This document shows positions 6,497-51,776 of a stretch of DNA of 64,000 bases, one piece after another. Position numbers and translations under genes: made by a program. The stretch is from a virus (Duplodnaviria > Heunggongvirae > Uroviricota > Caudoviricetes), in the IMG/VR virus record IMGVR_UViG_3300033070_001565; one strand, 5' to 3'. The notes beneath the pieces are model-generated. The model ran no database searches, was not told the DNA's origin, and saw only the letters and a program-made list of their open reading frames with translations. The first letter of the stretch is position 1, and each line of letters opens with the position of its first letter.

Positions 6497-6503
6497 GCTA
6501 CAA

Positions 6504-8042: not shown

Positions 8043-8073
8043 AAATAAGTGTTTCCATGGAGATAATGTAAGT

Positions 8074-9129: not shown

Positions 9130-9145
9130 GATATGATGCGAGTAC

Positions 9146-13331: not shown

Positions 13332-13560
13332 GGGCATACACACTGCGTACGTTAGCTCAAGGGGGAAACTGCTCGAAGCTCTGTCACTTCAGTCTGACAC
13401 TGCCAAGATTGCTCCAGGCTTGAAAGTATCGCACGAGAGTTCAGGTCTCAGATACGATGTAGTAATCGTCGGATCTGAGGGCGTGAAACTGCGCGCTCCC
13501 GATGGTGGAGAGTTCGTTGTGAGACGTCAAGATTTTGAAAGGGAGTACTCAATTGGCTGA
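13303..13560 (+). CDS. hypothetical protein
   Basis: ORF of 85 aa. Confidence 0.3.
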   Translation: MILNRKKLIEGIHTAYVSSRGKLLEALSLQSDTAKIAPGLKVSHESSGLRYDVVIVGSEGVKLRAPDGGEFVVRRQDFEREYSIG

Positions 13561-26226: not shown

Positions 26227-26846
26227 TGATCAACACTTATGTAAAGAGGATCGTAGAAGCAGCTGTACAACCCTCTCGTGCGCTTTCGGAGGGTCTCGCT
26301 CTTTGCTTCTCTCAACCACTTGATATTATCGTGCTGTACAAACCATCCGTGTTTGGAAATCCGGATGAAGGATTGCTGAAGACTTCACACAAGGGAGTTG
26401 TCTTTGGATACCTCTCGTACAGAGATAGAAGCGTTGACGATTATCACATCAGAGAGGTAACGGCCTCAGCAGCAACTCATGGGTATGGTCCGATTCTGTA
26501 CGATACTCTCCTACACAGTGGCTGGGCGATACCTGATCGCGGAAGCGTTTCAAAAGCAGCTCTCAGAGTTTGGGAGTATTACGCAAAATCACGACCCGAA
26601 ACTGTGATCAAGAAGATTCCAGATCCACTCAGAGATACGTCAGACAACTTGCAGTTTGATGAAAGAAAAAATCATCTTCTCAACTCAATGTACTCTCTCC
26701 CAAGCATTGATCAGAGATATGACGATCTGCTCGCAGAACACGAGAAATTCGTTGAGTCAATGCGTCGTTACAGACAACAGATCGTAATAGAGAAGAAGCT
26801 CGACGATCTTGGACAAGACTTCTTTGCGGAGAAATACAGTGGTTGA
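26226..26846 (+). CDS. tandem paralogue 2 of 8
   Basis: MINTYVKRIVEAAV...HGYGPILYD...PDRGSVSKAALRVWEYY, joined by an ATGA overlap. Confidence 0.6.
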   Translation: MINTYVKRIVEAAVQPSRALSEGLALCFSQPLDIIVLYKPSVFGNPDEGLLKTSHKGVVFGYLSYRDRSVDDYHIREVTASAATHGYGPILYDTLLHSGWAIPDRGSVSKAALRVWEYYAKSRPETVIKKIPDPLRDTSDNLQFDERKNHLLNSMYSLPSIDQRYDDLLAEHEKFVESMRRYRQQIVIEKKLDDLGQDFFAEKYSG

Positions 26847-27459
26847 GAGGTATGTACGTGCAATTGTTGAGAAGGCCATTGTACCAGAGAAGGCTCTGCA
26901 ACATGGTCTGTCACTCCTAAAAGGAAAGGACTGTCTGGTCCTCTACAATGGGTGGGAGGCCACCAACAGGGCCCGGGCCTCGAAGGGAGGTATTCCACCT
27001 GCCAGTGTCATTCCCATCATTGGATTCTTGCAGTGGTACGACCGCCTGGGCACTCCGGCAGTGAGAGAGATCAAAGCTTCGTTTGCAGTACACGGATGCG
27101 GACCGCTTCTTTACGATATTGCAATGTCTGGTTGCGAGTGGATGATGGCTGACAGATTTTCAGTTTCTGCAGCTGCAGAGCGTGTTTGGTTGTATTACTA
27201 CTCAAAACGTAGCGATGTTGAGCACGCTCCTCTTCCAGAGAAATATCAGAAAGATCCCGAAGAACTTACTGAGCGGGAGAGAACAGTTCTCAATTCGATG
27301 TATAGAATCAAAGACAAGATCGACTCACACGAACTTGAAGCTGCTCACAGAGATCACTGTGAAGAAATCGCGCGGATTTCTGGTGAGGCAGGAATAAGAA
27401 AATTCGAGAGACAGATTGTCCTCGCTGGCGAACAAAAGTTTTCGGATGCATTCACATGA
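26839..27459 (+). CDS. tandem paralogue 3 of 8 (GTG start)
   Basis: VVERYVRAIVEKAIV...HGCGPLLYD...RVWLYYY. Confidence 0.5.
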   Translation: MVERYVRAIVEKAIVPEKALQHGLSLLKGKDCLVLYNGWEATNRARASKGGIPPASVIPIIGFLQWYDRLGTPAVREIKASFAVHGCGPLLYDIAMSGCEWMMADRFSVSAAAERVWLYYYSKRSDVEHAPLPEKYQKDPEELTERERTVLNSMYRIKDKIDSHELEAAHRDHCEEIARISGEAGIRKFERQIVLAGEQKFSDAFT

Positions 27460-28073
27460 TTATCAAAGAAGCAGCTAGCACAATATCAGACGCAATAGGC
27501 GATGGTCTGGCACTGTACGATTCAGATCCTGGTAACATCAGCGCGAGTATTATTCTGTACGATCCGGTCATCGCTAGACTGAGACCGACCGCAGAGTGTA
27601 TTACTGCTTACGTTGGCGTCGATAATGATCCATACATTGCTGGAAGATTTGGGATGGTTTCGTCATCAGTGGCAGAGTCGGGTTATGGACCTCTGACGTA
27701 CGATTACGCTCTCTCGAGAGGATTCAAAATCATCTCTGACAGATCGTCAGTCTCGTCATCTGCTCAGAGAGTATGGGTGTACTACTATCTCAAGCGTAGC
27801 GATGTCATGAAACAGCGAATCATTGCTCCTGACACGAAACCGGTAATAAAGGCTTGGACATATCCATCTTACAAGATTGAAGATGACGATACGAGAGATG
27901 CTCTCAATCATGCTTACTGGATTCCGAACGGAGAGGAAAAATTCGTAGATCTCCTCGAGGCCCATGATACGCGTTTGAACAGTATCAAAGGTCAGGCAGC
28001 CAAGAGACAGTTCCTGCAGTCTCTCCGTAGTGCGGCACTGTCGTTTTTCCACGCTAATTACAAGGACGAGTGA
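27456..28073 (+). CDS. tandem paralogue 4 of 8 (diverged leader)
   Basis: MIIKEAASTISDAIGDGLALYD...SGYGPLTYD...RVWVYYY. Confidence 0.55.
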   Translation: MIIKEAASTISDAIGDGLALYDSDPGNISASIILYDPVIARLRPTAECITAYVGVDNDPYIAGRFGMVSSSVAESGYGPLTYDYALSRGFKIISDRSSVSSSAQRVWVYYYLKRSDVMKQRIIAPDTKPVIKAWTYPSYKIEDDDTRDALNHAYWIPNGEEKFVDLLEAHDTRLNSIKGQAAKRQFLQSLRSAALSFFHANYKDE

Positions 28074-28732
28074 TGTCTCTCCAAGCGTATGTAAGAAAAA
28101 TTGTCGAGGCGGCGCTGACATCATCTGATGCAGAGAGTTCAGGTCTTGCCCTTTGCGTTGTTAACAGAGACGGTACGCTTGCGATACTTTACAACGTTAG
28201 TAAAATGAAAGACGCTCTTTGGCATCACAAGGGAAGAGACGTTGACGCAATTGTCGGGATGATTCACGTAACTTCGGCTGAGTATAACGTTCATGGACCG
28301 AGTTACGGTGGGCTTGAGGTTGTGGCAGCTGCGGCGGAGAAAGGTTACGGCCCACTACTTTACGATTTTGCACTGAGTTTGGGAAAACCGATTATGCCAG
28401 ATCGTGAGTCGGTTTCGAAAAAAGCTTCTGCAATATGGGATTACTTCTATTCAAAGAGACCAGATGTCAAGAAACTGAGGCTTGACAACAAGTATGATCC
28501 AAAAACGCCAGACCCGTATGATGATTCGTGGTATCACAAAGAGACTGGAAAGGAGAATCCACTAAATTTCGCATACGTTGGCGAGGGAAATCCTTGCACG
28601 TCACTGATTGCTGCTCATGATCGTCTCTGCGAAACATTCGAACGTCTCGGTGTTTGCAAGAAAGAAAACTTTGTCAACCTACTGAAGATTGTTGGAGACA
28701 GATACTTCATTGGGAGATATAGACACGGATGA
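28073..28732 (+). CDS. tandem paralogue 5 of 8
   Basis: MSLQAYVRKIVEAAL...KGYGPLLYDFALS...IWDYFY...LRLDNKYDPKTPDPYDDS. Confidence 0.6.
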   Translation: MSLQAYVRKIVEAALTSSDAESSGLALCVVNRDGTLAILYNVSKMKDALWHHKGRDVDAIVGMIHVTSAEYNVHGPSYGGLEVVAAAAEKGYGPLLYDFALSLGKPIMPDRESVSKKASAIWDYFYSKRPDVKKLRLDNKYDPKTPDPYDDSWYHKETGKENPLNFAYVGEGNPCTSLIAAHDRLCETFERLGVCKKENFVNLLKIVGDRYFIGRYRHG

Positions 28733-29478
28733 TCGCTGAACAGTACATCAAAAGTCTCGTCGAGGCTGCAGTGACAGCAGACGCTGCGCAGTCTGCAGGA
28801 ATGGCTCTCATGATCACTGCCACTGGTGACAAGATGGATATTGTCCTCTATGATCCAAAGAAATTCTTGAGATTTGCGCAAGAGAATCTTCAAGGGGAGG
28901 ACGCGCATTCTGATTCAGACTGTAGCGATTGCATCTATGGCCATGTTCAGATGAGACCTGTACCGCAGAGTTATGGACAGAGCTATGGAGCCTATGTCAT
29001 CAATACGACGTCGTCTCTCAAGGGATACGGTCCTCTCATGTACGATATTGCTCTTGGGCTGGGTCGACCCGTAATACCAGACCGTTCATCTGTTTCTCCC
29101 GCTGCGAAGAAGATCTGGACAGTTTACAAACTCAATCGTTCAGATGTGAAGAAGCTTCCACTGGATAACAAGGACGCTCCAAGAACGCCTGATCCAAAAG
29201 ACGATTCTGTCATTTATCCTGGCGATGACGAGCTCACGAATCCGCTCAACTTTGCGTACATCCGTCCGGGTTCGAACGCACAGTACTCCGGAATGCTCGA
29301 GAAGCACAGGAAAGTTGCGAGAATCGTGACGGCAAAGGTCCCAAGCATCACTGTGAAAGACGTTGAAGAGATGCTGAGACACGGTGGCGGAGAGTTCTTC
29401 TTCAGGAGATACGCAAGTGAAAACTTACGTGAAGCTCATTGTAGAGGCTGCAATGGGAGTCGACTCTGCAGCCTCTGA
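28729..29478 (+). CDS. tandem paralogue 6 of 8 (no stop at the family end, reads about 60 nt into the next copy)
   Basis: MIAEQYIKSLVEAAV...KGYGPLMYD...LPLDNKDAPRTPDPKDDS...FFFRRY, then an extension. Confidence 0.55.
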   Translation: MIAEQYIKSLVEAAVTADAAQSAGMALMITATGDKMDIVLYDPKKFLRFAQENLQGEDAHSDSDCSDCIYGHVQMRPVPQSYGQSYGAYVINTTSSLKGYGPLMYDIALGLGRPVIPDRSSVSPAAKKIWTVYKLNRSDVKKLPLDNKDAPRTPDPKDDSVIYPGDDELTNPLNFAYIRPGSNAQYSGMLEKHRKVARIVTAKVPSITVKDVEEMLRHGGGEFFFRRYASENLREAHCRGCNGSRLCSL

Positions 29479-30079
29479 GGGATACGCCCTCTATTCGAAC
29501 GACTATGGTCGAGGTCAGACAGCACTCCTGTACGATCCCGAATACGTGTGGAGAGTCTCGTCTTCTGGAAAGCTCCCACAACAATCCTCGGGACCCGTAG
29601 TTGCGTATATCAACACGCGGAAGAGAGAGAATATCAAGGGTCACATGTACGGAGCTCGCGCAATTGCGTCTGCAGCTGCTCGTAAGGGATGGGGACCCAT
29701 GCTGTACGATTTCATCATCTCTTCAGGAAAAGTCGCACCAGATCGTCTCTCTGTTTCATCTAGCGCAGAGTCTGTTTGGTCGTATTACAAAAACAAGCGT
29801 CCTGATGTAGAAAAAGAGAAGATAGACAATGTTCTCGCACCGAAGACACCGACACCAGTCGACGATGGCGAGGTCTATGATAAGGGAAGTGATGAGAATC
29901 CTCTCAATTACGTGTACTCAATGAAATCAGATATCGCGAGTCAGTACTCTCCGCTCATCAGATCTCACAGCGAATTTTGCGATAGGATGCAGCAGAAGAG
30001 AGGAATCTCACGAGATGATCTCGAAGCGTACCTCAAGAAGTGCGGAAGCATGTTCTTCATGAAGAAATACGAAGGATAA
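29417..30079 (+). CDS. tandem paralogue 7 of 8 (GTG start)
   Basis: VKTYVKLIVEAAMG...KGWGPMLYD...VWSYYKNKRPDV. Confidence 0.5.
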   Translation: MKTYVKLIVEAAMGVDSAASEGYALYSNDYGRGQTALLYDPEYVWRVSSSGKLPQQSSGPVVAYINTRKRENIKGHMYGARAIASAAARKGWGPMLYDFIISSGKVAPDRLSVSSSAESVWSYYKNKRPDVEKEKIDNVLAPKTPTPVDDGEVYDKGSDENPLNYVYSMKSDIASQYSPLIRSHSEFCDRMQQKRGISRDDLEAYLKKCGSMFFMKKYEG

Positions 30080-30080
30080 A

Positions 30081-30773
30081 ATGATCGGGTCTTATGTCAA
30101 ACGTCTCGTTGAAGCTGCACTCGGAATCGACTCTGCACTAGCTGCAGGTCTTGCACTCTGTGTAAATAAAGGTTCAGGTGGAGCTTACATTGTGCTTTAC
30201 GATGCAAAGGAGTACGTTAAACACGCTCTTGCGAATGCGAAACACATTGGCGAAATGACAGATCCCCGTACGGCTGAATGTGTGTACGGGTTTATCAGAA
30301 TGCATGTGGTCGATCCAAGCAACGGAGAGAGTTACGGTTCATACGAGATTGCGAACTCAGTTGCAAGGAAAGGGTACGGACCGTTCATGTACGATGTTGC
30401 AATGAGTCTTGGAAAACCCGTCATATCAGATCGCGGATCTGTTTCTCCAGATGCACAAAAAATTTGGAAATACTACAAAGATAACAGATCTGACGTGAAG
30501 AAGCTTCCGCTCGATAACAAATCTGCACCGAGAACACCAGAAACTTTTGATGACTCGATTGTATTTGACGCCGGAAAGGAATCTGAACTCACGAACCCTC
30601 TTAATTTTGCATATAAGAGTGGTGGAATCGATTTTTCAAAATTGACTCAGAGACACGAAAAAGTCTTGCAGCTGCTGAAAACGAAAATACCAGAACTGAC
30701 TCCTGACAGAGTAGAGTCAAGTCTTAATCATTTTGCTGAAGATTACTTCATCAAGAGATATCACGGAGTCTGA
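30081..30773 (+). CDS. tandem paralogue 8 of 8
   Basis: MIGSYVKRLVEAAL...KGYGPFMYD...LPLDNKSAPRTPETFDDS. Confidence 0.6.
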   Translation: MIGSYVKRLVEAALGIDSALAAGLALCVNKGSGGAYIVLYDAKEYVKHALANAKHIGEMTDPRTAECVYGFIRMHVVDPSNGESYGSYEIANSVARKGYGPFMYDVAMSLGKPVISDRGSVSPDAQKIWKYYKDNRSDVKKLPLDNKSAPRTPETFDDSIVFDAGKESELTNPLNFAYKSGGIDFSKLTQRHEKVLQLLKTKIPELTPDRVESSLNHFAEDYFIKRYHGV

Positions 30774-32597: not shown

Positions 32598-33139
32598 AAC
32601 TTGCTCCTCATCGGTACTGTTTTATTCTGCTTCTTTGGCATTACCGTCGTCTTTGCGGCGGGTTGCTTAATACGCTCCTGTACTGGAGCTCGCGATTTTA
32701 CGGGATCGGCTGGTGGTTGACCGGGACCGTGAGGCGTTTCAGGTACCGGTTTTTCCATGGCAGGGTGTGGCTCTTTTGTCTGAGTTGGCGTCGCCTCTGT
32801 CGAATCTTCTGCAGGGGCGTGATTCACTGCATGCGCCCTGTATGCTAGCGCGAATGCGTAGAGCGCATCATCAGCCGTTCCACCCAGCTTTTCAAATTCT
32901 GCAGTGTACTTTGCTATGAGCTTATCAATCTCTGCAGTCATCTTCTTCGCGGCATTCGAACGAGCTCGCGAGACATACTTGTTTTGCATGTCAACGTGCA
33001 GTCCTCGTACCATGTCTGACGCCGCACCGAGAAGCGCTCTGACATCGAATTCTTTGATGAGCTGAGCTCTCGCAGCTTCTCTTATGATCTGTTCGACACT
33101 CGGTTCGAGTTTGTGCATGTATTTATGTATATGACACAA
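32594..33139 (-). CDS. hypothetical protein
   Basis: Product of 181 aa with a 4-nt overlap with the downstream minus-strand gene. Confidence 0.4.
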   Translation of the reverse strand: MCHIHKYMHKLEPSVEQIIREAARAQLIKEFDVRALLGAASDMVRGLHVDMQNKYVSRARSNAAKKMTAEIDKLIAKYTAEFEKLGGTADDALYAFALAYRAHAVNHAPAEDSTEATPTQTKEPHPAMEKPVPETPHGPGQPPADPVKSRAPVQERIKQPAAKTTVMPKKQNKTVPMRSKL

Positions 33140-33922
33140 CCTGTGCTAGGTGGGTATAAAAGTGATTCAGCGTCAGCAACTGGTTCTGGCGGTCTATATA
33201 CGAGCGCGACAGAGCTAGCTCCGCTTGCAAGCTCGATTGATGGAGCAGAAATCGATCTCCGCAAGTGGGACTCTCCCGTAGAGAGACAGTTGAGGACGAG
33301 CTCTTGCACTGCGAATGCAACAGTTGCAGATCTCGAGCATCTCAGAATTGCGGCAGGAAAGTCGCACGTTGATCTCTCGAGACTCTTTCTCTATTACAAT
33401 GCTCGAGCGCAGCATCAGGCCACGTCGATTGACGATGGAACGTACATCTCGCTCGCATTTGACACACTGAGAACTCTTGGAACCTGTAGAGAGGCAACGT
33501 GGGCATTCGATCAGAGCAGAGTGAATGTGAGACCCTCATGGGACTCGTACAGAGAGGCCTACACGCACAAGATCTCTGAATTCTACAGAATTCAGGACAC
33601 AGACTCTGAGAAATTCAGACTCATTGATGAGTCACTTCGCCGGGGCCATCCGATTGTATTCGGGTGCACAGTCGATGAGGTCTTCATCAAGGGCACTGGG
33701 TCATCCGGTATTGTCGCTCCTCCCGCAAAGGTCAGAGTGAACACAGGAGGGCACGCAATGCTCATTGTTGGTAAGCTTAGATCCGGATGCTACATTGTCA
33801 AGAACTCATGGGGGACTGACTGGGGTGACGAGGGATACTGCTACATGCCTCAGGCATACCTATCAGAGGAGAATGCACATGATTTTTGGGTTTCGACAAT
33901 CGGATGGGAAAATGCTTCGTAA
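33113..33922 (+). CDS. papain-like (C1 family) cysteine peptidase
   Basis: Cys candidate in RTSSCTANATVADLEHL. The His/Asn region GGHAMLIVGKL...IVKNSWGTDWGDEGYCYM matches the papain signature. Confidence 0.65.
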   Translation: MHVFMYMTQPVLGGYKSDSASATGSGGLYTSATELAPLASSIDGAEIDLRKWDSPVERQLRTSSCTANATVADLEHLRIAAGKSHVDLSRLFLYYNARAQHQATSIDDGTYISLAFDTLRTLGTCREATWAFDQSRVNVRPSWDSYREAYTHKISEFYRIQDTDSEKFRLIDESLRRGHPIVFGCTVDEVFIKGTGSSGIVAPPAKVRVNTGGHAMLIVGKLRSGCYIVKNSWGTDWGDEGYCYMPQAYLSEENAHDFWVSTIGWENAS

Positions 33923-34235
33923 GTTTATTGCTCTCGTTGCATTCTGCATAGTCTTCATTGTGCAGATTGGATGCTCTGGCTGCTCTGGTAGCAAGATCAC
34001 CCCCGTACCGAATCCAGCTGTGATCTCTGACACGAACATGTGCGAGCCGGCATGCAATCATTTGAGAGAGCTGCACTGCGCGCAGGGAGAGCCGCTCTCT
34101 GACGGAACATCTTGTGAGACCGTCTGTGTGAATACTCAGAAACACGGTGTCTGGCTCAATCCAACATGTGTGATCACACTGAAAACATGCGAACAGCTCG
34201 AGCCGGTGTGCGCTGAGAGTCATCCACTAGAATAA
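33912..34235 (+). CDS. Cys-rich small lipoprotein
   Basis: MLRKFIALVAFCIVFIVQIGC lipobox-like signal and 10 Cys in 107 aa. Confidence 0.45.
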   Translation: MLRKFIALVAFCIVFIVQIGCSGCSGSKITPVPNPAVISDTNMCEPACNHLRELHCAQGEPLSDGTSCETVCVNTQKHGVWLNPTCVITLKTCEQLEPVCAESHPLE

Positions 34236-34275
34236 AGAGGGTGCAAAAAATCTGGGTTGGTGGTATAACTGTTAT

Positions 34276-35148
34276 ATGCCAATCCCACCTGACACTGGGT
34301 TCACGCCCCCACAGTCCCCTGAGCCTCTCTTGCAGGAGCTCTTTGTGGGTTCGGAGGCATGGCCTTGGCGCATTCTCGTTCTCTGTGTGATGCTTAATCA
34401 GACATCACGCAAGCAAGTTGAGCCCGTGTGTCACAAGTTCTTCGCTGCATTTCCGAATCCCGAGTCTCTGCTTAGCGCTGACCACGAGGACATTCACAAG
34501 ATTGTCCGCCCGCTCGGGTTTGGTAATAAGCGTGCGAAGACGATCAAGAAGATGTCGATCGAGTATCTCACAGACGCCTGGGAGGATGTGAGCGAGCTCT
34601 TCGGGGTTGGCAAGTACGCAGTCGATGCGTGGAGAATCTTTGTCGAGGGACGGTGGAATGACGTCACTCCCGATGATCACGCCCTCTGTGATTATCACCG
34701 CTGGGTCACTGGAGCGAAACCCAAGCCGAAAGTCGATCCCGATGATGTCTCTTGGGATGAGATGATCCGCGCGAAGCGAGAGTGGTGGAGTCAATTCAGC
34801 GAAGATGATCAGCCAAACCGTACATGGTCCTCTGGCGCGACTCTCTGGTTGAGCTCTCAGCAGTATCTCGCGAACGTCGGTCTCGCTCACTCAGATGAGT
34901 GGGTTGAGTCTCTCAGAATCGCTTGCGATAGCAAACTGCGCCGCGCTGTTCCAAGCGAGATTCCTCCCGGTACTCCCGTTTTCATTCTGCTCCCGCACGA
35001 GAGGAGACTTGCAGAGGCAGTGTGGTTTGGTAAACCCCCGCACGATTCATGGGGTGCCTGGCGCGATATCGGCACTGGCGAGATCTACACTCTCATTGAG
35101 AGAATCGTGAAAGATGTGGGAGTGCAGGTCTGGTACAAAGAGTGTTGA
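34276..35148 (+). CDS. HhH-GPD DNA glycosylase, MBD4-like (mismatch/uracil-type)
   Basis: PWRILVLCVMLNQTSRKQV...GFGNKRAKTIKKMSIEYL...GVGKYAVDAWRIFVEGRWNDVTPDDHAL parallels the MBD4 glycosylase domain. Confidence 0.65.
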   Translation: MPIPPDTGFTPPQSPEPLLQELFVGSEAWPWRILVLCVMLNQTSRKQVEPVCHKFFAAFPNPESLLSADHEDIHKIVRPLGFGNKRAKTIKKMSIEYLTDAWEDVSELFGVGKYAVDAWRIFVEGRWNDVTPDDHALCDYHRWVTGAKPKPKVDPDDVSWDEMIRAKREWWSQFSEDDQPNRTWSSGATLWLSSQQYLANVGLAHSDEWVESLRIACDSKLRRAVPSEIPPGTPVFILLPHERRLAEAVWFGKPPHDSWGAWRDIGTGEIYTLIERIVKDVGVQVWYKEC

Positions 35149-35261
35149 AAATAAAAGATCGGCGACTTACAAATAACACATGATCGAAACTCGAAGCGAA
35201 AAAAGATGAGGGTACCCATATCACACAAGCGGATCTCAAGACAGCTCTCGCAGGTGCAGCT

Positions 35262-35759
35262 GTGACAGTGACCCGGTTGACAGACCGTACAACTGATGAT
35301 GAGTGGCCGACTGGATATCGTGGTCCGCGTGATCACGGTATGATTGTTGCAATGTATGGGATCCCTCCCACGCCGAATTTCGATTACCCGGAAACTCCAT
35401 GGGCTCCTGTACCCGTTGCTCCTGTGCAGCCTCTCATTCCACGTCCAAAGAAAGATTTGCTAGACAAGCTTGTTCCCGAGGACAAGAAAGACACAGATCC
35501 ACCTCCCACTGATCCCAACGGTTATCACAAGCGCAAGATTGCTCGTGGTAAGCTCGGCGAGATCTCGAAGGTGAAGGAGGAGTGCGAAGAGTTCGAGGAT
35601 GCGATCGAACAGGGAATTGTCATCATGGCTCACGCAGAGCTGGCAGATATCTACGGTGCACTGAAAGCTCTCGCAGCTGCACACGGTCTCAAGATGTCTG
35701 ATCTCGAGAAGATGGATTCAGCGACTGAACGAGCGTTCAATTCGGGCCGGAGGAAGTGA
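35262..35759 (+). CDS. MazG-like nucleotide pyrophosphohydrolase (start uncertain)
   Basis: KEECEEFEDAIEQG...AHAELADIYGAL gives the EExxE...ExxD pattern. Confidence 0.4.
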   Translation: MTVTRLTDRTTDDEWPTGYRGPRDHGMIVAMYGIPPTPNFDYPETPWAPVPVAPVQPLIPRPKKDLLDKLVPEDKKDTDPPPTDPNGYHKRKIARGKLGEISKVKEECEEFEDAIEQGIVIMAHAELADIYGALKALAAAHGLKMSDLEKMDSATERAFNSGRRK

Positions 35760-36326
35760 ATGAAAGATATTCGCTGGGATCTCATTACACAAGCTGTCAC
35801 ATTCTACAAGATAAAATCGTGGGACTACTACGAGCTCCCATGGCACATTCAAGAGAGCACTCACTCTCTTATTTCGCAAAAGACTCCTCACCGCACAGTT
35901 GATGGGTGCTTTGTCGGTTCTGCTGAGCAGTCATTCGTTCAGCTCATGATCGATGGAAAGCTCCCGACTGTGCACGGGATGGGAGTCACACCTTGTCTGA
36001 GAGATGACACTCCTGATCCTCTACACAAGAGAGAGTTCATGAAAGTTGAACTCTTCTGTGGAGGATTGAGAGAGCATTTCGATACGGGAAGTTGCATTCC
36101 GCTCTCTTGGCTCGAGATGATTCTCCGTAGCGCAAAAGAGTTTTTCTACGAGATAGACACACAGAAGCTTCGTGTTGAAGAGACTGAAGAAGGGTACGAT
36201 ATCACTTCGAACGGAATTGAGATTGGCTCTTACGGGATTCGAAGGAGCGAAAAGTATGTCTGGGCCTATGGTACTGGACTTGCTGAGCCACGGTGGTCGA
36301 CGGCTCAAAAGGAGATTACTTACTAA
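35760..36326 (+). CDS. hypothetical protein
   Basis: Product of 188 aa with a 1-nt gap after the previous gene. Confidence 0.4.
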   Translation: MKDIRWDLITQAVTFYKIKSWDYYELPWHIQESTHSLISQKTPHRTVDGCFVGSAEQSFVQLMIDGKLPTVHGMGVTPCLRDDTPDPLHKREFMKVELFCGGLREHFDTGSCIPLSWLEMILRSAKEFFYEIDTQKLRVEETEEGYDITSNGIEIGSYGIRRSEKYVWAYGTGLAEPRWSTAQKEITY

Positions 36327-36877
36327 TGATTACCGTTTGGTGGATGATAGCAACTGCGATCATTACCTTCATCGCGACAAGTCATTTTTTCGATTTTTGG
36401 AAGAATCGAAAAGAATCAAAAGATAATGTCCGCGCGCAACTCAGACGCGCTCTCGAGTCAGATGATCACAAGCAGATCAGGGCCGCAGCGGTGCAGCACA
36501 AACCAGATATCGAAAAAGAGACGTTCATTTTCATGATCAATCGTGCAGATTCTCTCGAAGCAGGAGCCGTGTTCGCTCGTGAAGATCACAGTAAATTACT
36601 CGCTCACGTGTTCGACTGGAAGTTACTCAGCAAAGATCGATGGCGATCAGGTTCAGGTGCCATTCAGAATCGCATCTCTTGCACGTCATTTCTCGAAGCG
36701 TGATGATGCTGATGTGTTCATCGTAGCTGCATACAGTTTCCCGAGCACTGTTGCAGAGCATACCGGGTGGACAGACAGAGAAGTTGCTCGAGCAAATCAA
36801 GAGCTCTACGATACCCTGAGACCTCATCTGAGTTCAGAGTGTCAGTCAATGATCAACCTCGCAAAACTCAAAGCAAA

Positions 36878-37180
36878 ATGACAAAACAAGAACGCATTGC
36901 TGTTGTAAAACAAAAAATTTCGAACGTTGAGCCAGAATACGAACGTTTGAGAGTTCAACTCGCATCTCTTAGAGATGAACTCGAATGCGAGAAAAATTCG
37001 TTTGATGTCGGAGAAAGCGTATATCTCATCGTGAGTTCTTGTGATCGTGGGTGTTGTAACAACACGTACCCTTGCAAAATTCTCAAAAGAATCGACATCA
37101 AAAATTACTTGATTGCTCTCGATAAAATTGGAACAGAGCGAGATGCAAGTTACAAAGAGCTCTCGCGTTATAACTGCTGA
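36878..37180 (+). CDS. hypothetical protein
   Basis: Product of 100 aa with an internal ATG start. Confidence 0.35.
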   Translation: MTKQERIAVVKQKISNVEPEYERLRVQLASLRDELECEKNSFDVGESVYLIVSSCDRGCCNNTYPCKILKRIDIKNYLIALDKIGTERDASYKELSRYNC

Positions 37181-37211
37181 AATCTAAAACATAGAGACAT
37201 ACACTAAGAAC

Positions 37212-38129
37212 ATGAATATCCGATCAAATCTGATTGCGGCCATTCTCGCTATCTCGTCTCTCATGACAGCTGGCTGCGATACAGACGATGTTCCTGCCTC
37301 ACATGTTGGCAGGAAGTTTGCGCGTACTGGTGCAGCTGCACTGTACCTTGGCGATACTGGCTTCGTAGGAGGCATTCTTCCTCCTGGAACCTATTACACG
37401 GGTCTGTACGATGAGATTCGTCTCGTGGAATGCGGTCAGCAGACGAAGAAAGAGACAATGCAAGCCCTCACAAAGGATGGGGTGCAGTTCAACATTGATC
37501 TCTATATCTCATTTGGGATTAAGTGCGATGATCCTAAAACTGTCGCAAAGCTCTTCTCGACTGTTGGACCTGCGCCCACTCAAGCTGGAAATCCTTCGAA
37601 GTACATTATGGGCAGTCAGATGTACGATATCTTCTTGAAGCCATCGCTTTCTGAAGCCGTACGCTCTGCTGTGTCTCCCTACATTGCAAATGCGATCAAT
37701 GCCTCACGCGAGGAGATCTTCAAGTCAATCCGCGATCAGTTCACACTTTCTCTCAAAACTCGTGGAGATGAATTCGTAACCGTACACCAGATCTCGATGT
37801 CGAATCTCGATTTTCCAGATGCAATGGACACTGCGAATACAGATCGTGCCGTTCAAGATGTTCTGAAAGACAAAGCCGTTGCAGAACGTGCGAGGGTCGA
37901 GGCAGAGATTGAGACGACCGTCATGAGGAAGAAGCTCTCTGCATCAAAGGGCGAAGCCATTGCAGCTGAGATTGACGCTGTTGGTGCTGCCCTCTCACGT
38001 CACCCTGAGTACACAAACTACATGCTCTACCAATCTCTACCTGATGTCTACATCAAAGCAGCAGAAAAGGGGAACATGGTGATCGCCGCTCCAAATCCGT
38101 ATACCATTACACCGAAGGTGAAGTTATGA
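37212..38129 (+). CDS. SPFH/band-7-like lipoprotein
   Basis: LMTAGC lipobox and an Ala/Glu-rich coiled-coil tail KAVAERARVEAEIE. Confidence 0.45.
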   Translation: MNIRSNLIAAILAISSLMTAGCDTDDVPASHVGRKFARTGAAALYLGDTGFVGGILPPGTYYTGLYDEIRLVECGQQTKKETMQALTKDGVQFNIDLYISFGIKCDDPKTVAKLFSTVGPAPTQAGNPSKYIMGSQMYDIFLKPSLSEAVRSAVSPYIANAINASREEIFKSIRDQFTLSLKTRGDEFVTVHQISMSNLDFPDAMDTANTDRAVQDVLKDKAVAERARVEAEIETTVMRKKLSASKGEAIAAEIDAVGAALSRHPEYTNYMLYQSLPDVYIKAAEKGNMVIAAPNPYTITPKVKL

Positions 38130-38470
38130 TCCGCGTCGTCGAAATAATCGTTTTCCTGTCAATCGCTTATTTCGGCGTTGGCGGAATGAGAGCGTTTTTC
38201 GCATATCTCTCATCGAGAACTAGCAAGAAGCAGAGTGCATACAACGAGTGCGCTGCGGCTCTCTCTTCAAAAGATCCAATGGAAATCTGTTCAGTTGCAA
38301 CACGAAATGCTGAGATCGTGAATTCTCAAACACTCTCACACATGTATGCAGAAGCAGCTCGATTGTCAGATAATCTTGAGAGAGAATCTCTTTATGAGAG
38401 AGCTCGCCAAGTTCACTTGCAGATTGATAGCAAATTCGAAACCCGAAAGAAAGAGATTCTTCATCAATGA
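38126..38470 (+). CDS. small membrane protein
   Basis: N-terminal TM segment VEIIVFLSIAYFGVGG with an ATGA overlap. Confidence 0.4.
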   Translation: MIRVVEIIVFLSIAYFGVGGMRAFFAYLSSRTSKKQSAYNECAAALSSKDPMEICSVATRNAEIVNSQTLSHMYAEAARLSDNLERESLYERARQVHLQIDSKFETRKKEILHQ

Positions 38471-39840
38471 GTGATCTGAAAAATTTGTACTCGTCCCTGC
38501 GCTCGAAGCTTGCTACGATCAATCGTTCAAAACTGTTTAGTAGTGCTCAGCAAGTGGGAGACATTTTCAATTCCGTTTCGGATTTCAGAGATAGCCCTGG
38601 ATTCCTTACGGGCGGGCAGGCAGCATTCAGGCTGATTGCGTTTGCCGATCAGATGCTGCAGCCTGACGATGCAGACGAGTTCTTCAAGAATGAATTCAAA
38701 GGAAAGACCTGGGTACAGATCTACTCTAATGACGTTCAGTCTCTGATCGCAAAAATGCTTGCAAAACACGTTGTCGAGCAGCATACGACAAAATGGACTT
38801 GGCAAATGGTTGACATTGCTCAAGTCAATGGGATCACATTCGGCTGGCTCCGTGAACAATCTTTCGCAAGCGGGAATGAGAAGTATCAGATGCTTCACGT
38901 TCTGCACGACGAAGTGCAACAAGCGAAAGACATCGTCAAGTCAATGGTGTGGAAGGCCGCTGGCTGCGATAACATAATCGCGTACAAGCTGAATGTACCA
39001 ACGAGCGAGTACGATGACGGCGATCAGATGAACGTCAGAAGGGATGATGAATATGAGTGTCACGAGAGTCTCCGTGCAACTCGTTGTGCAGCAAGGATCA
39101 AGAAATACATCTCGAATGGTAAGACTCGTTCGATCATGTTTTACGGTCCTCCGGGTACTGGCAAATCGACCCTCATCAGAACAATCGTAGCGAAGCTCAA
39201 GCTCAGAACTCTCAGAATCAACGTCGAACACATTAGAAATACAGAGACAATTCGTCAGCTCTGCGAGCTCTTCATGCCAGATGCCATCATCTTTGATGAT
39301 ATCGACAGAACAAACACGAGCGCAAGCTTGCTTGCACTCCTTGAGCAGCTGAGACATATCGTGAAGGTAATGCTCACATCTGCGAACTGGACATCCGAGT
39401 TTGATTGTGCCACCATCCGCCCTGGTCGAATTGACGAAATCGTACCAGTGATCAGGCTTGATAAGATTGCTCTGATGAAAATCTTGGGTGAGGAGAACAT
39501 CGATCTTTACTCGAGAGTGAGACGGTGGCCCATGGCTTACATCCAAGAAGCCTGTCTCCGGAGGAAGATCGAATCTGCAAAAGCGTTCGAACGTTCAATG
39601 AGCGAACTTGCACAGAGATGTGCTCATGATACCGAAATCTTTGAAGAAAAAGATCCCATTGGCCTAGGTACGAATCCTGCACGCAGGAAGCTCGCAAAGA
39701 AGCGCGCAAAAGAAAAGAAGCTCGTCGCTAGCGCTCCAAAAAATGGAACTTTCACGAGTGAACCACCAGGAAGAATTGCAAGACGCGGGGCTGCAATGCG
39801 TAGACTAGAGCGTATCAATCGGCGCCGCCTCTTACGATAA
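38467..39840 (+). CDS. AAA+ ATPase
   Basis: Walker A motif FYGPPGTGKSTL and Walker B motif IIFDDIDR. Confidence 0.75.
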   Translation: MSDLKNLYSSLRSKLATINRSKLFSSAQQVGDIFNSVSDFRDSPGFLTGGQAAFRLIAFADQMLQPDDADEFFKNEFKGKTWVQIYSNDVQSLIAKMLAKHVVEQHTTKWTWQMVDIAQVNGITFGWLREQSFASGNEKYQMLHVLHDEVQQAKDIVKSMVWKAAGCDNIIAYKLNVPTSEYDDGDQMNVRRDDEYECHESLRATRCAARIKKYISNGKTRSIMFYGPPGTGKSTLIRTIVAKLKLRTLRINVEHIRNTETIRQLCELFMPDAIIFDDIDRTNTSASLLALLEQLRHIVKVMLTSANWTSEFDCATIRPGRIDEIVPVIRLDKIALMKILGEENIDLYSRVRRWPMAYIQEACLRRKIESAKAFERSMSELAQRCAHDTEIFEEKDPIGLGTNPARRKLAKKRAKEKKLVASAPKNGTFTSEPPGRIARRGAAMRRLERINRRRLLR

Positions 39841-39881
39841 TGGTTCGGTGCAACACTCCTTACGAGGTGGTATGATGTCAT

Positions 39882-40793
39882 ATGGGCCTAGGTCTTGTAT
39901 GTCACCATGTCACTCTAGTGCGCGGTAAGCCTGTTAATTCGCTGTCTCCTCGTGCATTGCGAGTTTGTGACTTGCGAAGCGGCAAGCTTACAACAAACCA
40001 GATTCTTGCTGTCTGGCACGAGAATATCTCGTCTCACCGCGGCCTGCCAGCCAAGCTCTCTGCTTGCGGTGCTTCCACGTATCGCATTTCATCATCTCTG
40101 CTCCCGCTGTGGGATCTTGTTGACGATTCTGTGAAATACGATGCATCTGTCTCGGCTGCGCTAGCGCAAATTGGCTCAGAACTGGCTGGCATCCGCTGCG
40201 TCATGCATCCTGGCCAGTTCGTCTCGCTTTCATCTCAAGATCCCCGTGTGCAAGCATCGTCTCTTGGCGATCTCGCAATGCACGCGTACATTCTTGACTG
40301 TATGGGTTTTCCACGGTCTCAGCACGCTGCGATCAATATCCACGGTGGCTCGAAAGCTGGTCTCTTCGACACTATCGATGCTATCAACCGGCTGCCCGCT
40401 TCCATCAAGTCTCGCATTACTCTCGAGAACGACGAGCTCTGCTTCGCTACCGAACATCTCTTGTTTGCTCATTCCGAGACTGGCTGCCCCATCGTTTTCG
40501 ATTCTCACCACCACTCTCTCAATCCTGGCCGGCTCTCCACGCAGGATGCCTACGATGTTGCAGTATCGACTTGGCCATCTGGTATCCGCCCTCTTCAGCA
40601 CATCTCGTCATCCCGTCCCGAGTCAGTTGGCGGTACTCTGTCTCAACTCCGCGCGCACGGTGATTACATTACACACATCTACGAGTGTCAGGCGGCCGGT
40701 GTTATCTCGAACTCGATCGACCTCGAGATCGAGGCGAAAGCCAAGAATTTTGCCGTTGCCCGTGTACGTGATAATCTCTTTCCGGGAGCATAA
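39882..40793 (+). CDS. uvdE: UV damage endonuclease (UvdE family)
   Basis: LGLVCHHVTL N-terminus and VMHPGQFVSLSS...AAINIHGGS, typical of UvdE TIM-barrel nucleases. Confidence 0.65.
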   Translation: MGLGLVCHHVTLVRGKPVNSLSPRALRVCDLRSGKLTTNQILAVWHENISSHRGLPAKLSACGASTYRISSSLLPLWDLVDDSVKYDASVSAALAQIGSELAGIRCVMHPGQFVSLSSQDPRVQASSLGDLAMHAYILDCMGFPRSQHAAINIHGGSKAGLFDTIDAINRLPASIKSRITLENDELCFATEHLLFAHSETGCPIVFDSHHHSLNPGRLSTQDAYDVAVSTWPSGIRPLQHISSSRPESVGGTLSQLRAHGDYITHIYECQAAGVISNSIDLEIEAKAKNFAVARVRDNLFPGA

Positions 40794-40802
40794 TATGGGT
40801 GT

Positions 40803-42413
40803 ATGCAAGAACATGAAACAGAGCTCCCGAGCCAGAACACGGCACAGGGACCAACCCGTGTGCTCTTTGGAGACGAAGCTCGCGCAGCAGTACTCGTTGG
40901 CGTTGAGATTGCTGGCCGCGCAGTCGGCGCGACCATGGGCCCCGGTGGCCGCACAGTCATCATCGAAAATAAGGGGAAGTCACCAACCGTAACAAAGGAC
41001 GGAGTGACAGTATGTGGGTTTGTGAACCCCAGAGACCCCTTTGCGCGGCTTGGGGCTGACTTGGTGAAGGAAGCAGCGCAGAAGACGAATGAGATTGCGG
41101 GAGATGGAACGACGACGGCATCTGTCCTTGCCTCTGCACTCTGTACCCGTGCGAGGAAGCATCTCTCTGTTGGAGTAGATCCCGTTGCTCTGAGAACAGG
41201 ATACGAGAAGGCTGCTCAAATCGCTCTCGAATATGTTGAGAAGCTAGCTCGACCCGTACAGACGAATGAGGATCTTGCACACGTTGCGAGGATCTCTGCG
41301 AATGGTGATAAGTTCGTCGGAGATCTCGTTGCACGTGCTCTTGCAAGGGTTGGAGCTCACGGAATCGTCACTGTAGAAGAATCACGTGGGGTACAGACAG
41401 AGCTCGAGGTTGTTGCGGGTACCCGGATTGATAGAGGGTATGCATCGCCGTATTTTGTGACATCTGGATCCGATCGTACGGCGAGACTTGAGCAGCCATT
41501 CGTCTTTCTCACAGACAGAAAGATCACGTCTTTCAAGGAGATTATGACAATTCTCGAGCACGTGAATAACTCGAGACGCTCCCTTCTCATTGTCGCAGAT
41601 GATTACGATTCTGATGTTTTGCAGGCTCTCGTTCTCAACAAAACACGTGGGGGATTGAAGGTATGCGCGATTAAGGCCCCCGCGGCTGGAGTGATCAGAG
41701 CCCAGCTTCTCGAGGATCTTGCGGTGCTTACTGGAGCTACAGTACTCATGGGGTCTGATAGCTGGGAGAGTCTAAAGCCCGATCACCTGGGTCAGTGCGA
41801 AACAGTCGTTGTCGATGCAAAGAAAACGACATTCATAAGAGGAAAGGGTACTCCAGAAGCGATTGCAGGAAGAGTTGCCGATCTCACTCTCAGAGTGAAT
41901 AATCCTGTTCTTACAGACATGGAGAGGAACTTTGTGAGAGGCAGACTTGCAGGATTGACTGCGGGAATTGGAGTTATCAAAGTCGGAGGGTACACTGATG
42001 TTGAGATCGGTGAACTCAAGCATCGCATTGAGGATGCTCTCAATGCAGCTCTCGGTGCTGCTGCTCAGGGAGTTGTTCCTGGAGGTGGAAGAGTACTCCA
42101 GCTCGCTTCAGGGGTCGTAAGTGCAGCGCGCAGACTGAACGATAACGAGGATGAGGCACTCGGAATGGCACAGTTTGCAGATGCTCTCCTCGATCCTGCA
42201 CGCAAGATTCTTGAAAATGCCGGGATGAAGACGATCGTATTTGACACTGAAGATGAGTGGTCGACTTACGATATCTCAGCAAAGAAAGCCGTGAATGCCT
42301 ACACTGCAGGTCTTCTCGATTCTGCGCGGGTTACTCTGGCTGCAATTGCAAATGCAACATCGGTTGCAAAGGCATTCGTATCTCTCGATGTTGCAATCAT
42401 CTCAGAGACATAA
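40803..42413 (+). CDS. groL: chaperonin GroEL (Cpn60)
   Basis: ATMGPGGRTVII, TKDGVTV and AGDGTTTASVLA motifs. Full length is 536 aa and the GGM tail is absent. Confidence 0.9.
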   Translation: MQEHETELPSQNTAQGPTRVLFGDEARAAVLVGVEIAGRAVGATMGPGGRTVIIENKGKSPTVTKDGVTVCGFVNPRDPFARLGADLVKEAAQKTNEIAGDGTTTASVLASALCTRARKHLSVGVDPVALRTGYEKAAQIALEYVEKLARPVQTNEDLAHVARISANGDKFVGDLVARALARVGAHGIVTVEESRGVQTELEVVAGTRIDRGYASPYFVTSGSDRTARLEQPFVFLTDRKITSFKEIMTILEHVNNSRRSLLIVADDYDSDVLQALVLNKTRGGLKVCAIKAPAAGVIRAQLLEDLAVLTGATVLMGSDSWESLKPDHLGQCETVVVDAKKTTFIRGKGTPEAIAGRVADLTLRVNNPVLTDMERNFVRGRLAGLTAGIGVIKVGGYTDVEIGELKHRIEDALNAALGAAAQGVVPGGGRVLQLASGVVSAARRLNDNEDEALGMAQFADALLDPARKILENAGMKTIVFDTEDEWSTYDISAKKAVNAYTAGLLDSARVTLAAIANATSVAKAFVSLDVAIISET

Positions 42414-42662
42414 TGATCTCACCTGGCTCTCTCGTAAGCTCGACACTGCGTGATGGTCATGGTGGATTTGGTATGGGACCTGTTTTCAAGTGCGGAATCG
42501 TTTACTGCATGCGGCCTTCTCCTCGGTCTGTACTTGAGCAGATGTACTGTTATGTCATCACACACAACAACATATACTGGTTGCCAATGACACCGGGAGA
42601 GCTTCACGCTATTGTGTTAAAAGCATTGAAAATTGTGCACGTTTTGATAAGAATGTGGTTAC

Positions 42663-44225
42663 ATGGCACGCGATTGGACTGCATTCTTTCCACATCCCAC
42701 TCCTCGCCCGGAACAGATCAAGACGCTAGACGCAATTGCAGATGCCTATGAGGCTGGTCACACGCATTTTATTGCAGCGCTGCCGACAGGAACAGGCAAG
42801 TCTGCAATTGCGCTTGCCTTTGCTCGGTGGTTCGACTCCCGTACAGCGGGTGGTGCTCACATTCTCACATCCCAGAGAATCTTGCAGGATCAGTATGCAA
42901 AAGAATTTACCGGAGCTGTCTCTGACATGAGATCGTCCGGAAATTTTACTTGCAATGGAAAACCCGATCACACGTGCGGTCAAGTTTCTCGCTTGAGGCA
43001 GTCGCTCCCTAAGGTTGGCTGGGTGAAGGGAATCTCTTGCAAAGTTTGTCCCTATCAGGTCAAAAAAGAGGAGTACATCAACAATCCGATTGGCTGCACA
43101 AATTACTCGTTCTTCCTCTCAGAAAGAGTCTATGCCGGTAAGCTCCCCCTGCGCGGACTCATGATCTGCGATGAGGCTCACAATGTCGAGGATGAGGTTC
43201 GTCGTTGGGCAACAGTGAGTATTAACAGGAAGTTCGCCGTTGGAAAGCTAAAACTTGACTGGCCCACCGAAGCAGATCTCCCTGCGTGGATTCTCGATGT
43301 GTACCGGCCGGCAGTCATGAAGTACTACGAGAAGCTTGTTCTCAAGGTCAAGAAAACTGGTGAAGGACCTCACCAGGCAAACATGCCCTCTCTCGTAGCG
43401 GAACTCGATTTCATGGACAAGCATCGGTGTCAGCTGAACCGAATGGATCTCGTCGATGTATCTTATGTGTACACGTACGGATTCGATGAGGCTTCTGCGA
43501 TTCCTCTCGATGTCACTGTCGAGATTAACGAGAATCTTTGGAAGGGTACTTCGTTCGTTCTCTTGATGACAGCGACAGCCCTAGATCGACGTCTGTTCAT
43601 CCAATCAACTGCGGTACCTGATACCACACCATATTTTGAGCTGCCCTCTCCATTCGAGGCCTGGAGGTACGGAATCACATATACGGCAACGGCAAGGATG
43701 TCCGGTGGTGGGATCAAGCTTCACGGAGACAAGATCAAACGCGCAATCAAGGAGATTCTGCGTCTCCACCCGAACGATAAGGGAATTATCCACGCAAACA
43801 GCTACGAGATCACTCGAGTGATCGAAGAGCTCAGGGATCCGAGGTTGCTCATTCAAAAGACGGGAGCAGATCGAGAGGGAATGCTCGAGAGACACAAGAT
43901 GAGCTCTCAGCCAACAGTGCTCGTATCTCCCGGTATGACAGAGGGAGTTGATCTCAGGGGAGACATGGGAAGGTTTCAGGTGATTGCAAAGATCCCTTAC
44001 CCGTACTTTGGAGATCCCGTTGTATCTGCTCACGTAAAATCAGACCGTGAGTGGTATGCATGGCAGACAATTATGACGCTTGTTCAGGCGGTTGGCCGCT
44101 GCGTGAGGAACAAGGAAGACTGGGCAAAAACGTACATTCTCGATCAGTGCTTTGTCGATCTTCTCAATCAACACCCGAAATTCTTTCCTGAATACTTCGA
44201 ACATCTGGAAGTGATCAGCTTGTAA
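42663..44225 (+). CDS. SF2 DEAH-box helicase (DinG/Rad3-like)
   Basis: Walker A motif LPTGTGKSAIALA and Walker B motif LMICDEAHNVED. Confidence 0.7.
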   Translation: MARDWTAFFPHPTPRPEQIKTLDAIADAYEAGHTHFIAALPTGTGKSAIALAFARWFDSRTAGGAHILTSQRILQDQYAKEFTGAVSDMRSSGNFTCNGKPDHTCGQVSRLRQSLPKVGWVKGISCKVCPYQVKKEEYINNPIGCTNYSFFLSERVYAGKLPLRGLMICDEAHNVEDEVRRWATVSINRKFAVGKLKLDWPTEADLPAWILDVYRPAVMKYYEKLVLKVKKTGEGPHQANMPSLVAELDFMDKHRCQLNRMDLVDVSYVYTYGFDEASAIPLDVTVEINENLWKGTSFVLLMTATALDRRLFIQSTAVPDTTPYFELPSPFEAWRYGITYTATARMSGGGIKLHGDKIKRAIKEILRLHPNDKGIIHANSYEITRVIEELRDPRLLIQKTGADREGMLERHKMSSQPTVLVSPGMTEGVDLRGDMGRFQVIAKIPYPYFGDPVVSAHVKSDREWYAWQTIMTLVQAVGRCVRNKEDWAKTYILDQCFVDLLNQHPKFFPEYFEHLEVISL

Positions 44226-51728: not shown

Positions 51729-51776
51729 TTGATTCAAATCTATATTTGTTGTTGCGTGTTTTCAGCTAATTGATTT

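Follow-up and report, generated by a model that had tools for sequence, protein, structure and literature searches.

We analysed a 64,000-nucleotide stretch of tailed-phage DNA (IMG/VR record IMGVR_UViG_3300033070_001565), referred to as the window, and in particular a gene on its plus strand (34276-35148) that encodes a protein of 290 amino acids (aa). The N-terminal half of this protein (aa 1-145; 34276-34710) is a HhH-GPD DNA glycosylase domain of the MBD4 type and its C-terminal half (aa 146-290; 34711-35148) is an orphan domain. Downstream on the same strand lie the genes for a MazG/PRA-PH-like all-alpha nucleoside triphosphate (NTP) pyrophosphohydrolase (35262-35759) and for UvdE, a TIM-barrel ultraviolet (UV) damage endonuclease (39882-40793). 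Upstream, the plus strand carries a thymidylate synthase (TS) homologue of the dCMP 5-hydroxymethylase type (11876-12886), adjoined by the gene for a dCMP-deaminase-family protein (12879-13331). We suggest that the glycosylase acts in base-excision repair, removing 5-hydroxymethyluracil (5hmU), thymine or uracil opposite guanine from a phage genome in which cytosine is substituted, and we regard this reading as reasonably probable.

The family assignment is clear. Pfam detects HhH-GPD in the 290-aa protein (52 bits, cut-off 26.2), and its best matches in the PDB are 15 distinct MBD4 catalytic-domain sequences (E 5.6e-32 to 1e-30, covering aa 9-145). The next matches are MutY (5.5e-5), Mig (1.2e-4) and EndoIII (2.3e-4), which makes MBD4 the closest structural relative in this search by 27 orders of magnitude; 59 of 133 aligned residues (44%) are identical in human MBD4. 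A profile search of the PDB with our alignment A3 was left out as evidence because that alignment includes human MBD4 and is hence not independent. An EndoIII- or AlkA-type glycosylase was considered and rejected on the E values of MBD4 (5.6e-32) and EndoIII (2.3e-4), and the MBD4-type identity proposed in a preliminary description of this DNA is upheld. From its sequence, the protein can be placed securely among the MBD4-type glycosylases. The 4Fe-4S loop motif Cys-x6-Cys-x2-Cys-x5-Cys was sought in the sequence and is absent, there being few cysteines after aa ~145. Pfam returned HhH-GPD alone and no methyl-CpG-binding domain in the 290-aa protein, in which the glycosylase domain begins at residue 9. 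In an AlphaFold model of the full protein, this N-terminal domain has a predicted local distance difference test (pLDDT) score of ~80.

Residue roles were mapped from the MBD4-DNA structures of PMC3479182. The MBD4 active pocket comprises residues 447-449 and 560-562 together with Leu466, Gly471 and Tyr540; Gln449 is essential, Asp560 is catalytic, Leu506 lies against the orphan guanine and Arg468 occupies the space that the flipped base vacates (PMC3479182). The 5-hydroxymethyl group of 5hmU makes no contact with the protein in this pocket and C5 substituents are tolerated (PMC3479182), and thymine, uracil and 5hmU opposite guanine are excised by MBD4 (PMC3458566; PMC3479182). In the phage protein the catalytic Asp560 is kept as D134, with a LFGVGKYAVD hairpin (the Gly-rich helix-hairpin-helix, HhH) followed by PDDHA, and the base-reading pair Gln449 and Tyr540 is kept as Q20 and Y114. 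Leu466, Asn467, Thr469, Ser470 and Leu506 are also retained, and the catalytic residues have not been lost. In the HhH loop the residue is Tyr instead of Lys; lyase activity is therefore not expected and a separate apurinic/apyrimidinic (AP) endonuclease would be needed (PMC9945173). The protein looks catalytically competent as a monofunctional DNA glycosylase.

Three pocket and loop positions do differ from MBD4, Arg468 being Q42, Gly471 being R45 and Lys562 being A136. These changes would suit a catalytically altered DNA-binding protein, in which the MBD4 fold and the C-terminal domain recognise modified DNA without excising a base, and in this connection the AXL1 genome paper described the homologue found in phages of the Xp12 group as an "ENDO3c" protein whose active site was judged absent or doubtful (PMC9206674). 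We compared 56 well-aligned homologues from viral contigs, in an alignment that also holds two eukaryotic sequences. Gln449, Asn467, Thr469, Gly538, Tyr540 and Asp560 are invariant in all 56 viral proteins. Position 468 is Leu in 41 of them, Gln in 15 and Arg in none; position 471 is Arg in 42 and Tyr in 13; and position 562 is Ala, Glu or Val. Both eukaryotic sequences have Arg468, Gly471 and Lys562. The Arg at position 471, found in the same loop in 42/56, resembles a functional substitution, and we read the three-residue shift of Arg inside this DNA-penetrating loop as another way to the same end rather than as decay. EndoIII and MutY presumably also have Gln as their wedge residue. The ratio of non-synonymous to synonymous substitution rates (dN/dS) of the glycosylase domain against an 81%-identical relative is 0.06, with dS (~1.5-1.7) near saturation. 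A pseudo-enzyme was rejected on the invariance of the Asp560 and Gln449 equivalents, and we consider a reader without excision activity very improbable. For the Xp12 group, this signature and the top PDB match of the 160-aa Xp12 homologue, which is again MBD4 (E 5e-14), contradict, at the level of alignments, the published view that the active site is absent. The proteins thus make up a subfamily of MBD4 in viruses whose Arg finger has moved, and in the window lineage it is fused to an orphan domain, in a context previously undescribed.

The orphan domain itself (aa 146-290) has no match in Pfam or PHROGs, and when 1.84 billion representative proteins were searched exhaustively with HMMER, its own cluster and one repeat-protein artefact were the only returns. 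It is 77% identical to its counterpart in a relative (P0002), with dN/dS of 0.11 (dS near saturation), and we therefore regard it as a real, selected domain; AlphaFold gives it a pLDDT below 50 within the full protein and of 40 when modelled alone. Nearly all other family members are stand-alone proteins of 140-160 aa, the fusion being restricted to this lineage. By analogy with the methyl-CpG-binding domain of MBD4 it could, speculatively, be a targeting module. Such a module would also fit an offensive or counter-defence enzyme, one that excises bases of unmodified host DNA or removes the lesions made by a host anti-phage deaminase. Cytosine-substituted phages such as T4 do discriminate against host DNA containing cytosine, and removal of deaminase lesions would employ the same chemistry as the excision of deaminated cytosine derivatives that we favour. 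However, the pocket residues that read O2, N3 and O4 of uracil-type bases are intact, and cytosine bound in MBD4 is an inhibitor rather than a substrate (PMC3479182). The C-terminal domain is missing from the homologues of other phages, and the glycosylase matched no family in PHROGs, a search that did not extend to the PADLOC defence library. An offensive or counter-defence role is improbable in our view, and the attack on unmodified host DNA envisaged in the preliminary description finds no support.

The reading that we prefer, repair of a cytosine-substituted genome, draws on the TS homologue. Its top PDB match is the CMP hydroxymethylase MilA (E 7e-40). The catalytic residue is Cys154, Asp185 occupies the position of ThyA N177 (31 residues after the Cys, the spacing of C146 and N177 in ThyA) and Asp151 the position of L143. 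In this family, N177D gives cytosine specificity and L143D/E gives hydroxymethylation, by way of water access (PMC13326640; bioRxiv 2024.12.05.627091). Two controls, read at L143/N177, agree with the rule: the SPO1 dUMP hydroxymethylase gp29 is Asp/Asn, and the Xp12 TS of 5-methylcytosine (5mC) synthesis is Asn/Asp. The window TS is of the Asp/Asp type and the phage therefore probably makes 5hm-dCMP and 5-hydroxymethylcytosine (5hmC) DNA. Judged by this gene content, its DNA most probably carries 5hmC, perhaps decorated with sugar. Beside the TS gene, in 8026-12886, a 687-aa protein that includes a thymidylate-kinase-like region is encoded between two NAD-dependent sugar epimerase/dehydratases, and this module looks like one that serves sugar-decorated 5hmC. 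The larger module (2984-12886) begins with the gene for PolIII-alpha (2984-6496), which is directly followed by an HNH endonuclease gene (6504-7064), possibly that of a homing endonuclease.

The dCMP-deaminase-family protein that adjoins the TS homologue matches Pfam dCMP_cyt_deam_1 (E 7e-19) and MafB19-deam (E 1.6e-10) as well as phrog_174. Phage enzymes of this family linked to N177D TS deaminate 5mC and 5hmC nucleotides and single-stranded DNA (bioRxiv 2024.12.05.627091). We infer that the phage deaminase is a plausible endogenous source of the lesions that the MBD4-type enzyme would remove. The preliminary description had placed the glycosylase next to a putative modified-base pathway and proposed that it could correct deamination products of the modified base. 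Comparison supports that role, through the dCMP-hydroxymethylase-type TS of the window and the 5mC cluster of the Xp12 group; as the base, a C5-modified cytosine is more likely than 5-hydroxymethyluracil, with 5hmU:G or T:G as the lesion.

Cultured phages that carry the glycosylase support the link. By tblastn against 50,697 GenBank phage records, the domain was found in 16, which comprise the Xp12 group (hosts Xanthomonas, Stenotrophomonas and Janthinobacterium), S-TIM54 and, distantly, an archaeal virus. An N177D TS homologue is present in each cultured bacteriophage lineage with the glycosylase (the Xp12 group and S-TIM54). Xp12 is the classical phage with complete substitution by 5mC (bioRxiv 2024.12.05.627091). 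Its genes run in the order glycosylase (L009 16329-16811), PRA-PH, TS (N177D), dCMP deaminase and DHFR, and Donnerlittchen has the same order (glycosylase at L010 11887-12357). S-TIM54 (L098 45397-46239; L096 6566-7846) has an annotated "ThyA" with Asp at N177 and Cys at L143, together with ThyX, a deaminase and a T4-type DNA alpha-glucosyltransferase (PF11440), gene content that suggests an unreported cytosine modification in a cultured cyanophage.

The MazG-like gene may belong to the same system. The Pfam PRA-PH match of its product (18.5 bits, E 0.0027) is under the cut-off of 21.3, and a PDB search with the protein gave nothing significant; phrog_6408, however, is matched at E 4.6e-25 over aa 86-165. 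The core motifs ExxE (KEECEEFED) and ExxD (HAELADIY) are present and are kept in relatives. Paired acidic motifs of this kind, ExxE and ExxD on two helices, are the metal-binding signature of all-alpha NTP pyrophosphohydrolases. The conserved core occupies the last ~85 aa; relatives share the N-terminal region only in part, and translation probably starts at an internal ATG near 35340. Pairwise similarity to the PRA-PH protein of Donnerlittchen is weak (E 0.002). A PRA-PH gene (E 1e-15) directly follows the glycosylase in both Xp12 and Donnerlittchen, and a dUTPase_2-like gene lies ~1.5 kb downstream of the glycosylase in 42 of 80 viral loci from metagenomes whose flanks, up to 10 kb, we inspected. 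PRA-PH is also among the top five domains co-localised with deaminase and TS genes on cytosine-modified metavirome contigs (bioRxiv 2024.12.05.627091). A pyrophosphatase thus occurs near the glycosylase in several independent settings, and we therefore read the MazG-like gene as machinery of the modified-nucleotide pool. The protein is most likely dCTPase-like, acting on the nucleotide pool, rather than a generic house-cleaning enzyme; the MazG-like label of the preliminary description is in keeping with the motifs, the PRA-PH score falls short, and a generic "hygiene" function is not obvious.

The identification of the gene at 39882-40793 as UvdE, made in the same description, we regard as secure on sequence grounds. 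Its product reaches 152 bits on Pfam UvdE (cut-off 24) and 117.5 on NCBIfam TIGR00629, slightly under the equivalog cut-off of 124.45, and its PDB matches are 3tc3 and 2j6v (E 1e-20 to 1e-23). The equivalents of H101, H143, E175, D200, H203 and H231 of Tth UVDE, which we take to be its metal ligands, are all kept; K229 is Leu, and the probing finger is Gln-Phe in place of Gln-Tyr. Cutting of abasic sites by UVDE enzymes varies widely among orthologues (PMC3553973). The genes for UvdE and the glycosylase are no more than 1.5 kb apart at 5 further viral loci, in differing order. It is plausible that glycosylase and UvdE form a coupled pair for excision and AP incision; UV repair alone would suffice to explain the presence of UvdE.

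The three genes lie in a single co-directional block of tightly packed plus-strand genes (33113-44225). The block opens with a papain-family peptidase (33113-33922) and a small Cys-rich open reading frame (ORF), which precede the 290-aa protein. Between the MazG-like and UvdE genes are those for a 188-aa aminoacyl-tRNA synthetase (aaRS)-like protein (35760-36326; phrog_4806 "histidyl tRNA synthetase", E 5e-35), two small ORFs, an SPFH/Band_7 protein (37212-38129), a 114-aa ORF and an AAA ATPase (38467-39840). A GroEL-type chaperonin (40803-42413) follows UvdE, and a Rad3/DinG-like helicase and a radical-SAM/SPASM protein are encoded farther downstream, all on the plus strand. The gene order of the block is retained in the 81%-identical relative, whose metagenomic contig measures 255.8 kb, and in contigs of 99% identity, and we therefore take the window to derive from an uncultured jumbo phage. 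At the DNA level, a search of 34276-40793 against the 50,697 phage records found no relative; its sole match was 89 nt within the MazG-like gene in the Caulobacter phages CcrBL9/CcrSC. A scan of 33000-43000 for promoters and terminators gave signals at or below chance, and operon structure is therefore not claimed. A contiguous repair operon was rejected since the glycosylase, MazG-like and UvdE genes are interrupted by unrelated ones (those for the 188-aa aaRS-like, SPFH/Band_7 and AAA ATPase proteins). The "repair gene set" of the preliminary description holds in that the three share one co-directional block, but they are not contiguous, and the trio is a loose neighbourhood, not a dedicated operon.

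Several other genes of the window deserve mention. The start of the 188-aa aaRS-like gene abuts the stop of the MazG-like gene; its product has a faint match to the class-II aaRS core in Pfam and nothing significant in a PDB search, and could be a candidate amino-acid ligase of a base-hypermodification pathway. Eight back-to-back paralogues (25612-30773) encode proteins of 204-249 aa with mutual identities of 28-47% (blastp E 1e-9 to 1e-72), none of which has a Pfam match; the array is also kept in the 255-kb relative (L001 1319-6509). Further accessory genes encode an N6/N4 DNA methyltransferase (687-1496), a protein with an Fe/Mn superoxide-dismutase C-terminal domain (13535-14245), a NUDIX hydrolase (22491-23156) and, on the minus strand, an RNA-ligase-family protein (50688-51737).

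Relatives of the glycosylase proved far more numerous in metagenomes. A first word-indexed protein search returned just two close relatives and one eukaryotic protein, and a scan of IMG/VR from the single protein sequence found no relatives; an alignment-based scan was needed, and this, although it uses a single motif and gives a lower bound, found 416 stretches that encode relatives. The preliminary description had called such an enzyme unusual in phages. This is true of GenBank, with its 16 records, but not of uncultured phages, in which the gene is common. When 5.8 billion clustered proteins were searched with a profile, 2,826 clusters scored E <= 1e-10; most are short, stand-alone proteins that come from marine metagenomes, and some are encoded on contigs of 255-288 kb.

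Combining these observations, we propose the following scheme. The dCMP-hydroxymethylase-type TS would supply 5hmC, possibly further decorated, to replace cytosine in the phage DNA. Deamination of 5hmC, either spontaneous or by the phage dCMP-deaminase-family enzyme acting on single-stranded DNA, would yield 5hmU:G, and in 5mC phages T:G, lesions that would be invisible to uracil-DNA glycosylase. The G-mispaired pyrimidine would be flipped into a pocket that Gln20 and Tyr114 make up together with the backbone near Leu19, where Asp134 would cleave the glycosidic bond and so take out the deaminated base. The resulting abasic site could be incised by UvdE or by a host AP endonuclease and refilled with modified dCTP, while the MazG/PRA-PH-like pyrophosphatase would act on the nucleotide pool to exclude canonical cytosine.

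A number of points weigh against this scheme. The TS gene of the window is 22 kb from the glycosylase gene, and the modification of the phage DNA is itself something that we infer. T4-like 5hmC phages, to our knowledge, manage without an MBD4-type glycosylase. If 5hmC is glycosylated, its deaminated product may not fit the pocket, and the substitution of the Arg468 finger of MBD4 by Gln42 means that the substrate range could differ. The UvdE step may also fail, as SacUVDE is nearly without activity on AP sites and orthologues vary (PMC3553973). Further points come from the neighbourhoods of the 80 loci, which were drawn from the 416 stretches. ThyX-like genes are the only TS genes at 41 of these loci, and at 25 no TS gene of any type lies in the 10-kb flanks; it is therefore not possible to tie most lineages to cytosine modification. 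A ThyA-family gene is in range at 14 loci, of which 10, from at least four sequence groups, are Asp/Asp and four (L088-L091, a single group) belong to a lineage with canonical ThyA.

These counts speak for a general-purpose U:G/T:G glycosylase of the replication module, an enzyme that would back up or replace host uracil and mismatch repair while the phage replicates rapidly and would have no special link to modified cytosine. The commonest neighbours at the 80 loci belong to replication and nucleotide metabolism, namely the dUTPase_2-like NTPase (42), ThyX-like proteins (41), a 5'-3' exonuclease (39), ribonucleotide reductase (38) and PolIII-alpha (22), with an N177D TS homologue in range at just 10 loci and one lineage carrying canonical ThyA. 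Yet the cultured bacteriophage lineages each have an N177D TS, the gene of the Xp12 group is embedded in a 5mC cluster, and ThyX is compatible with cytosine modification, S-TIM54 having both ThyX and an N177D TS. Flanks of 10 kb also miss distant genes, as they would have missed the TS of the window. At two loci (L013 and L015) the glycosylase lies just upstream of a module of PolIII-alpha, TS, kinase and epimerase that corresponds to 2984-12886 of the window. The link to cytosine modification is strong where it can be read and is unreadable or absent in most lineages; general repair therefore keeps appreciable weight, although we think it unlikely. As a separate observation, 27 viral loci carry, ~2.9 kb downstream of the glycosylase, a long divergent ThyX-like protein (~333 aa; PF02511 65 bits; L074 13095-14093), and four of the 27 carry a second, more typical ThyX; the divergent protein may make dTMP or another C5-modified pyrimidine.

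In cellular genomes the gene is rare. A motif scan of one genome per species in 185,579 bacterial and archaeal species, which gives a lower bound, found three loci, all in metagenome-assembled or single-amplified genomes. One of them, in a Ca. Actinomarina single-cell genome (L093 5959-6348), lies among cellular genes (hydrolases, CbiM and an EamA transporter) and is therefore truly a bacterial copy, if a rare one. A rough neighbour-joining tree, which has no support values and is only suggestive, places the two eukaryotic sequences within the viral set. With so few prokaryotic loci and eukaryotic MBD4 inside the viral diversity, the family would be one essentially common to viruses and eukaryotes, and the catalytic domain with which animals and plants guard methylated CpG could have been exchanged with phages or viruses. 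We tentatively advance a wider proposal, which we hold to be possible rather than probable: that MBD4-type glycosylases are a widespread, unrecognised arm of phage cytosine substitution, paired with an all-alpha NTP pyrophosphatase and removing the T:G and 5hmU:G lesions to which 5mC and 5hmC genomes, and the 5mC/5hmC deaminases of the phages themselves, unavoidably give rise, and that their catalytic domain has been exchanged between eukaryotes and phages or viruses.

Genomes substituted with 5mC or 5hmC face a particular repair problem, as the deaminated base is thymine or 5hmU, which uracil-DNA glycosylase ignores. In the literature that we searched, the MetaGPA paper and its supplements included, there is no description of a phage solution to this deamination, of MBD4-type glycosylases in phages or of their tie to 5mC or 5hmC genomes. 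A dedicated phage enzyme of the MBD4 type, if our reading is correct, would explain how cytosine-substituted genomes remain stable and would help to trace where the catalytic domain of eukaryotic MBD4 came from. It would also add a marker by which cytosine-modified phages could be predicted from metagenomic data, and T:G/5hmU:G glycosylases of small size (~140 aa) that could be used in sequencing and base editing.

Among known enzymes, human and mouse MBD4 (MED1; PDB 4dk9, 4e9e, 1ngn, 3iho) share with the phage protein the HhH-GPD fold class without an Fe-S cluster, the Leu466-Asn467-x-Thr469-Ser470 loop and an N-terminal TPPxSP segment; the phage protein differs in having no methyl-CpG-binding domain and a 145-aa C-terminal orphan domain instead. 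The "ENDO3c" proteins of the Xp12 group (Xp12 QNN97216.1, AXL1 gp65, Donnerlittchen USN14433.1), labelled hypothetical or endonuclease III in the literature, belong to the same family (33-39% identity to the window protein) and likewise occur in phages with a cytosine-specific TS homologue; each has a PRA-PH-type NTP pyrophosphatase encoded right after it. Unlike the window protein, they are single domains of 156-160 aa encoded inside a TS/deaminase/DHFR cluster, and their TS has Asn at L143 in a phage with 5mC DNA and is hence taken to be of the methylase type. Mig.Mth, the T/U:G glycosylase of Methanothermobacter (PDB 1kea), is a far more distant member of the HhH-GPD superfamily (E 1e-4). 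Mig repairs T:G arising from 5mC deamination and is linked to a methyltransferase; Mig, EndoIII and MutY all have a 4Fe-4S cluster loop, whereas the window protein lacks the Cys-rich cluster motif. Vsr (T:G) and TDG (U, T or 5hmU opposite G) are functional analogues dedicated to correcting the deamination of cytosine or methylcytosine, but E. coli Vsr and TDG/MUG are unrelated to the window protein in fold and chemistry, nor was any similarity in sequence detected. We know of no MBD4-type glycosylase in T4, whose 5hmC pathway consists of the dCMP hydroxymethylase gp42, the dCTPase gp56, the kinase gp1 and glucosyltransferases; of these, the window has a gp42-type Asp/Asp TS, a kinase-like protein and, in the MazG-like protein, a candidate all-alpha NTPase.

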